A stretch of 64,000 bases of DNA, taken from the NCBI RefSeq assembly GCF_003334815.1, contig NZ_QOWO01000009.1; one strand, written 5' to 3'. The position numbers were made by a program, and so were the translations under genes. Shown piece by piece: positions 10,819 through 10,947 of the stretch (position 1 is its first letter; the number at the start of each line of letters is the position of its first letter). The DNA is from Escherichia coli. Lineage in GTDB: Bacteria; Pseudomonadota; Gammaproteobacteria; Enterobacterales; Enterobacteriaceae. The notes below the pieces were generated by a model. That model worked only from the letters and a program-made list of their open reading frames with translations. It searched no databases and was not told the origin of the DNA.

Positions 10819-10863
10819 GTATTTCAGTCTCGATTAACAGATAACGCAAAATTGCTGTGTTCT

Positions 10864-10891
10864 TCAGATTCGTTTTATAGCCTGAAGTTCC
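10864..10891 (-). promoter_or_regulatory. sigmaE-type promoter of degP
   Basis: Minus strand GGAACTT (rc of 10885-10891), 16-nt spacer, TCTGA (rc of 10864-10868), about 45 nt upstream of degP ATG; matches sigmaE consensus and the known htrA promoter; GTAAA motifs further upstream (10913-10937) fit reported Cpx control. Confidence 0.7.
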
Positions 10892-10947
10892 GAACTAAAG
10901 TTTCTGCAAAAGGTAAAAATTTATTGTTCGTCTTTACAAAAGCCTGG

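Follow-up and report, generated by a model that had tools for sequence, protein, structure and literature searches.

At degP (htrA), a textbook example, the sigma-E and Cpx envelope-stress pathways and temperature control all converge on a single periplasmic protease/chaperone, which matters both for surviving heat and for virulence. The locus analyzed here raises the question of how these inputs are laid out in the short stretch of DNA between dgt and degP, and how far each can be read from the bases themselves. The locus lies in a 64-kb stretch of Escherichia coli DNA (hereafter, the window), to which all positions refer.

The dgt-degP intergenic region and its sigma-E promoter

A preliminary description, made from the sequence alone, had singled out a degP upstream region at 10819-10947 as a recognised envelope-stress control region. 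Its coordinates were borne out by the list of open reading frames, which places the dgt-degP intergenic region at exactly these positions (129 bp), and by a megablast search (≥95% identity), in which the 601-bp stretch 10600-11200 was present in 5425 of 5426 complete E. coli genomes and annotated as dgt and degP. K-12-type strains match both this stretch and the yad block (34-42 kb) at 100% identity. The region is the native degP (htrA) control region of a K-12-type E. coli chromosome, not a mere relative of one, and its description as an envelope-stress control region is supported by the identity of the locus, by its motifs and their conservation, and by published regulation. The features discussed below are listed in Table 1.

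Table 1. Features of the degP control region and its surroundings, in window coordinates
Feature	Position	Strand	Details
degP (htrA) coding sequence	9394-10818	-	474 aa, ATG at 10818; regulated gene; RefSeq 'serine endoprotease DegP'
HtrA fourU RNA thermometer in degP 5'UTR	10813-10858	-	Rfam RF02700
Putative +1 (A) of sigma-E promoter	10858	-	5-nt discriminator, giving a 40-nt 5'UTR
Sigma-E -10 element TCTGA	10864-10868	-	exact motif read
Spacer, 16 nt, partly conserved	10869-10884	-	TATAAA at 10879-10874, TAAAAC at 10877-10872, CAGG at 10884-10881
Sigma-E -35 element GGAACTT	10885-10891	-	perfect consensus match
CpxR-type element GTAAA-N5-ACAAT-N5-TTTAC	10913-10937	-	three pentamers phased at 10 bp
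dgt (dGTPase)	10948-12465	-	505-aa open reading frame; its end precedes the 129-bp gap
Distal 'degP2' CpxR box GTAAATTACCGTCAG, within dgt coding sequence	11073-11087	-	literature-listed (PMC9600279); doubtful relevance

The yad block itself (34000-42000) has a low GC content (40-43%, compared with ~52% elsewhere) and corresponds to the yad chaperone-usher fimbrial operon, including yadC, yadK, yadL, htrE, and yadV. It is 100% identical to K-12 MG1655, but in the majority of other E. coli genomes the identity is only 80-95%.

On the minus strand, GGAACTT-N16-TCTGA (GGAACTTCAGGCTATAAAACGAATCTGA) at 10891-10864 is the sole match to the sigma-E pattern in the window, and the full pattern was found in 0 of 100 dinucleotide-preserving shuffles. 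The 28 mapped E. coli sigma-E promoters have a -35 element of GGAACTT and a -10 element of TCAAA, strongly prefer a 16-nt spacer, and place a 5/6-nt discriminator before an A or G start (Rhodius 2006, PMC1312014); the classical RpoE/AlgU form is GAACTT-N16/17-TCtgA (PMC10651043). We admitted spacers of 15-19 nt, with 16 nt preferred, and the spacer of the degP region has the preferred length. The degP -10 element TCTGA agrees with the classical TCtgA at five of five positions and with the E. coli regulon consensus TCAAA at only three of five, and a search for TCNAA-type sigma-E promoters did not find the degP promoter because its -10 element reads TCTGA. Thus, the consensus match claimed earlier holds for the -35 element, the spacer, and the classical form of the -10 element, and it needs qualification with respect to the E. 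coli regulon consensus.

The preliminary description had also expected transcription to start about 7 nt downstream of TCTGA. The putative start, A10858, lies 6 nt after this element rather than 7, behind a 5-nt discriminator that is within the published preference (PMC1312014); it coincides with the first position of the Rfam thermometer model and agrees with the stress-induced Salmonella transcription start that yields a 40-nt untranslated region (UTR) (PMC5602114). From these agreements, we infer that A10858 is probably the +1 in the present strain. For the sigma-E dependence of degP transcription, we rely on published studies of this locus or its Salmonella orthologue; upon rpoE overexpression, for example, degP was the most strongly induced gene (56-fold, PMC2731931). 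A scan of 10700-11150 gave no match to a sigma-70 promoter, and no intrinsic terminator was detected after dgt in the same interval, which leaves room for read-through or for starts within dgt.

We also noted that AGAAACTTTAG (10894-10904, minus strand) repeats the -35 region imperfectly in direct orientation (8 of 10 bases). It lies 13 bp upstream of GGAACTTCAG and is ~80% conserved across species. The opposite strand of 10894-10904 reads CTAAAGTTTCTGCAAA, a weak 16-bp CpxR candidate in one published position-weight screen.

Conservation of the region and the CpxR-type element

Species-representative genomes were scanned with the DegP protein; the 80 best matches listed (DegP 83-100% identical) all belong to the Enterobacteriaceae and cover genera including Escherichia, Citrobacter, Salmonella, Enterobacter, Klebsiella, Kluyvera, Kosakonia, Buttiauxella, and Mangrovibacter. 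Extraction of the 200 nt preceding degP left 78 different sequences from ~80 Enterobacteriaceae species, and these were aligned with MAFFT. The -35 core GAACT (10890-10886) was 100% conserved in this set, with the full element reading GGAACTT in 60 sequences, GGAACTA in 12, and TGAACTT in 6. The distance between the -35 and -10 elements was 16 nt in 75 of the 78, and the -10 element read TCTGA in 66, TCTTA in 7, and TCTCA in 3, its T, C, and final A being 97-100% conserved; an A was located 6 nt after the -10 element in 70 of 78. Within the spacer, TATAAA was present in 60 sequences, TAAAAT in 22, and TAAAAC in 24.

Further upstream, GTAAA, the central NCAAT, and TTTAC were each present in all 78 sequences, and the span from the first to the last was exactly 25 bp in every one of them. 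The 100% conserved runs are TTGTAAAG (10939-10932), CAATA (10926-10922), and TTTAC (10917-10913), and conserved flanks widen the CpxR-type block to ~10909-10941. Neighboring bases, both those separating the blocks and those that directly follow the dgt stop codon, are only 10-40% identical. The mean majority frequency was 0.98 at motif positions and 0.745 at the remaining positions of the promoter region (Mann-Whitney p = 1.6e-12, a value that treats neighboring columns as independent and so overstates the precision of the difference, not its direction). This footprinting puts all of the elements far beyond chance.

The preliminary description had read the GTAAA-containing sequence at 10913-10937 as fitting the reported CpxR dependence of degP. 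One GTAAA lies on the minus strand (10937-10933) and the second on the plus strand (10913-10917), where the minus strand reads TTTAC; the two are inverted and 20 bp apart and do not form a tandem GTAAA-N5-GTAAA. Read along the minus strand, the element is GTAAA-gacga-ACAAT-aaatt-TTTAC, in which ACAAT is a weak second half-site in either orientation, and the centers of the three pentamers fall at about -77, -67, and -57 relative to a +1 at 10858. GTAAA-N15-TTTAC is unique in the window, and at least one match occurred in 3 of 100 shuffles. A lone GTAAA occurs often (10-35 copies in each ~6-kb locus) and therefore means little, the weight coming from its conservation. Within 10819-10947, no match to GTAAA-N5-GTAAA was found with up to two mismatches, nor did any sequence there fit the tandem definition of a CpxR box (GTAAA-N5(4-8)-GTAAA). 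Over the whole window, GTAAA-N5-GTAAA-like sites with up to two mismatches were in slight excess (68 observed, 51 expected). Given the absence of a tandem match and these near-chance counts, the CpxR reading rests on conservation and on the literature, not on the consensus.

The CpxR dependence of degP is likewise taken from published work on this locus or its Salmonella orthologue. The site degP1, one of 41 known CpxR sites, is GTAAAGACGAACAAT, which corresponds to 10937-10923 (PMC9600279 Table S1); its published position-weight score is low (7.77, PMC9600279), its first half being a perfect GTAAA and its second half, ACAAT, matching at two of five positions. The expression of degP was increased 26-32-fold in cells that carried cpxA24 or overproduced NlpE; with cpxR deleted, the increase was only 6-fold (PMC9600279). 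In one study, CpxR overexpression alone did not induce degP, for which its authors blame limiting sigma-E (PMC2731931). The claim of a CpxR-type site is upheld by the GTAAA at both ends of 10913-10937, by its invariance in the 78 sequences, and by the literature site, with the correction that the pentamers are inverted and do not make up a tandem box. The number of CpxR dimers bound and their orientation are a matter of inference. The distal degP2 box was left out of the mechanism because its 3' half varies across genera (only 12-58% of sequences share the window base; the 5' GTAAA is 70-98% conserved), and it may be lineage-specific or non-functional.

Within E. coli, ~4036 of 5425 genomes differ from the window by at least two bases in the intergenic region, and the core motifs were unchanged in the two divergent alleles inspected. 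Just after the -35 element, the K-12-type window has CAGG (10884-10881, minus strand) and both divergent strains aligned have CGCG; among the 78 Enterobacteriaceae sequences, G is found at 10883 in 82% and C at 10882 in 83%, and CAGG looks like a derived 2-nt change. In E. coli 2017-19-1CC, a 768-bp IS1 (L082 560-1327) is inserted at the dgt stop codon (window 10942-10950), where it has duplicated 9 bp of target, TAACCAGGC. The insertion lies directly upstream of the CpxR-type block; in this strain, both that block and the sigma-E promoter are intact but parted from dgt.

The degP leader and the fourU thermometer

The preliminary description had omitted one layer of control, a thermometer in the 40-nt 5'UTR, which is a translational control element. 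In an Rfam scan of the whole window, the leader matched RF02700 over the full model (positions 1-46) with 77 bits against a gathering score of 52 (E = 1.4e-14). The minimum-energy fold is the published fourU hairpin, with a predicted energy of -3 kcal/mol (description in PMC5602114): UUUU (10851-10848) pairs with the Shine-Dalgarno GAGA (10831-10828), followed by a G-C pair, a bulged C at 10846, a 4-bp upper stem, and a 5-nt loop. The stability of the hairpin does not exceed that of shuffled sequence (z = 0.94); a weak fold might be expected of a thermometer, so this comparison is not informative.

The alignment adds little to the single fold. Counted on the named hairpin, 73.8% of cells were paired, compared with 73.4% in shuffles and 28-53% in slid registers; no covariation in excess of the shuffles was found in the named hairpin, and RNAalifold predicted no consensus structure for 41 leaders. 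The Rfam threshold was reached by only 5 of 20 other genera. The leader is probably a member of the thermometer family because it is nearly identical to the Salmonella leader studied by experiment, which has the same stem and for which reporter and SHAPE assays showed temperature-dependent translation (PMC5602114). Our statements on the start sites and on thermometer behavior follow published work on this locus or on Salmonella htrA.

In 37 of 78 species, the interval between the -10 element and the conserved ACAGCAA leader (10859-10863 in the window) contains extra bases, usually 6 (in 29 species) or 7 (in 4), as in the TCTGA-TAGTCAC-GTAC of Klebsiella and Kluyvera. With an A still located 6 nt after the -10 element, the leaders of these species would be longer by that much and the thermometer further from the 5' end. 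The same Rfam scan placed two other RNAs above their gathering thresholds, both downstream of the degP region and on the minus strand: the CssrA sRNA at 908-1017 (136 bits) and the t44 RNA at 1856-1942 (83.5 bits).

Taken together, the direct observations are the elements themselves, unique in the window, with their geometry and conservation, and the match of the leader to the covariance model; it is very probable that 10819-10947 is a three-input control region in which sigma-E initiation, activation by phosphorylated CpxR, and a fourU leader act on degP. In the mechanism that we propose, sigma-E holoenzyme would recognise GGAACTT (10891-10885) and TCTGA (10868-10864) and initiate at about A10858. 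Phosphorylated CpxR, the response regulator of the Cpx two-component system, would bind the 25-bp element at 10937-10913, centered ~57-77 bp upstream of the start, and boost transcription. The 40-nt leader would then form a weak fourU hairpin, which would cover the ribosome-binding site when the temperature is low and open upon heat shock.

Alternative readings and comparison with known systems

Three start sites have been mapped for Salmonella htrA: one giving the 40-nt UTR, which the first study detected under stress alone; one giving a 47-nt UTR, expressed constitutively at a low level and without stress; and one inside dgt, giving a 215- or 449-nt UTR (PMC5602114). With respect to the last of these, GAATATTATTAC (11038-11050, minus strand, in dgt) has synonymous third positions (11050, 11047, 11044, and 11041) that are 83-95% conserved, when others are mostly 20-55% conserved; its TATTAT (11046-11041) would make a good -10 element for a start near 11033-11034, which matches the Salmonella 215-nt-UTR htrA P1 start. 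A second conserved synonymous run in dgt is found at 11008-11020 (GATTATATCAGC).

The 47-nt UTR bears on whether sigma-E is the only sigma factor at work in the intergenic region. Part of the Cpx-dependent or basal transcription could come from a second promoter, of sigma-70 type and lying within the sigma-E spacer, with a -10 element of TAAAAC/TATAAA (10879-10872), a start at ~10865, and the upstream CpxR element making up for the absent -35; such a promoter would add to the main explanation and not replace it. Besides the stress-independent Salmonella start, S. enterica subsp. arizonae carries a TAAAAT (L013 2442-2447) exactly 7 nt upstream of the 47-nt-UTR start position, 2454, and the spacer is unusually conserved, TATAAA recurring in 60 of the 78 sequences. 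In an abstract of 1995, Danese is said to have described the Cpx induction of degP as only partly sigma-E-dependent. The 6-fold induction that remains in a cpxR deletion (PMC9600279) and the sigma-E-limited behavior of degP (PMC2731931) also fit a nested promoter. On the other hand, the window hexamer TAAAAC is without the critical T at -7, TAAAAT occurs in only 22 of 78 species, no -35 is recognisable and the sigma-70 scan of 10700-11150 was empty, and the conservation of the spacer could mirror the preferences of sigma-E, whose promoters have a weakly conserved spacer tied to the -10 element (Rhodius, PMC1312014). We regard a nested sigma-70 promoter, as an extra and weak promoter in E. coli, as rather unlikely, yet the strongest of the additions considered here. 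A broader proposal, which we put forward tentatively and hold to be a little less likely still, takes the degP element as a rigid 25-bp dyad, GTAAA-N5-NCAAT-N5-TTTAC, of non-standard type that would be bound by two head-to-head CpxR dimers sharing the central pentamer, or by CpxR and a second factor, with Cpx driving transcription from the sigma-E promoter or else from a nested sigma-70 one (TAAAAT, intact in Salmonella; TAAAAC, degraded in E. coli). If true, the dyad and nested-promoter reading would mean lineage-specific wiring of two envelope-stress pathways at a single promoter.

The inverted pentamer may have another explanation. The proximal block AATAAATTTTTAC(C)TTTT (10924-10908), which includes the inverted GTAAA, could be a UP-like contact for the alpha subunit of RNA polymerase or a site for another factor, with CpxR bound only at the distal GTAAAGA...CAAT. 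OmpR-family regulators normally bind direct repeats and not inverted ones. The published table, moreover, has only GTAAAGACGAACAAT, without the inverted pentamer (PMC9600279), and sigma-E promoters are A/T-rich upstream of the -35 element with peaks near -48/-49 and -57/-58 (PMC1312014), the latter corresponding to positions 10915-10916. These points have to be set against a TTTAC that is invariant in 78 of 78 sequences and always sits 20 bp from the other GTAAA, which is more specific than an A/T tract needs, and against the 10-bp phasing of the pentamers on one helix face, as expected for multiple regulator protomers. The best alignment of the AAATTTTTAC tract with the UP-element consensus is ~7 bp out of register, and for this reason a UP element in this tract was set aside except as a minor rival. 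All in all, we consider this assignment of the proximal block improbable. A purely coincidental occurrence of the motifs in A/T-rich intergenic DNA, with no regulatory role, has next to no likelihood: the frequency of bare GTAAA and the 68 GTAAA-N5-GTAAA-like sites against 51 expected would suit it, but the full sigma-E pattern is absent from all 100 shuffles, degP itself is subject to published regulation, and the invariance of the motifs across genera, next to bases of 10-40% identity (p = 1.6e-12), effectively refutes it.

The three-input reading describes a control region that is already known, well studied, and strongly conserved, and biology gains nothing new from it. Its confirmation shows that such regions are recognisable by a first-stage reader from raw sequence, and the minor additions are a footprint of 78 species at base resolution, the inverted arrangement of the three pentamers, the K-12-type CAGG spacer allele, and the TAAAAT/TAAAAC difference.

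Compared with the E. coli K-12 degP promoter region, which is sigma-E-dependent and CpxR-activated, the window has the same DNA, genes, motifs, and spacing, with no difference. The Salmonella enterica htrA region (P1, P2, P3, and the fourU thermometer) shares the -35 and -10 elements, the 16-nt spacer, the 25-bp block, and the 40-nt leader. The hairpin stem is identical in the two, the Rfam scores are close (77 bits in the window; 78.4 bits in S. enterica subsp. arizonae), and the leader differences are small (loop U/C; GAGACUG versus GAGAUUG); thermometer function has been assayed on the Salmonella sequence only. The two lineages differ in the spacer hexamer, which is TAAAAT in Salmonella, fitting the sigma-70 P2 start, and TAAAAC (10877-10872) in E. 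coli. This difference could mean that one lineage has gained or lost a nested sigma-70 promoter, and it may explain the differences between Salmonella and E. coli in degP regulation mentioned in PMC6361445.

With canonical CpxR boxes such as those of cpxP (GTAAAACAACGTAAA) and ppiA, the degP element shares a perfect GTAAA, a repeat period of 10 bp, and its placement ahead of the -35 element; the canonical boxes are tandem direct repeats, whereas the degP element consists of a perfect pentamer, a degenerate ACAAT, and an inverted perfect pentamer. With promoters of sigma-E/AlgU (RpoE-type ECF sigma factors), such as rpoH P3 and algD/AlgU, the degP promoter has in common GAACTT-N16/17-TCtgA, a short discriminator, and a putative purine start. 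It differs from them in a -10 element, TCTGA, that departs from the E. coli regulon TCAAA at two positions, and in that it additionally needs or uses an upstream activator.
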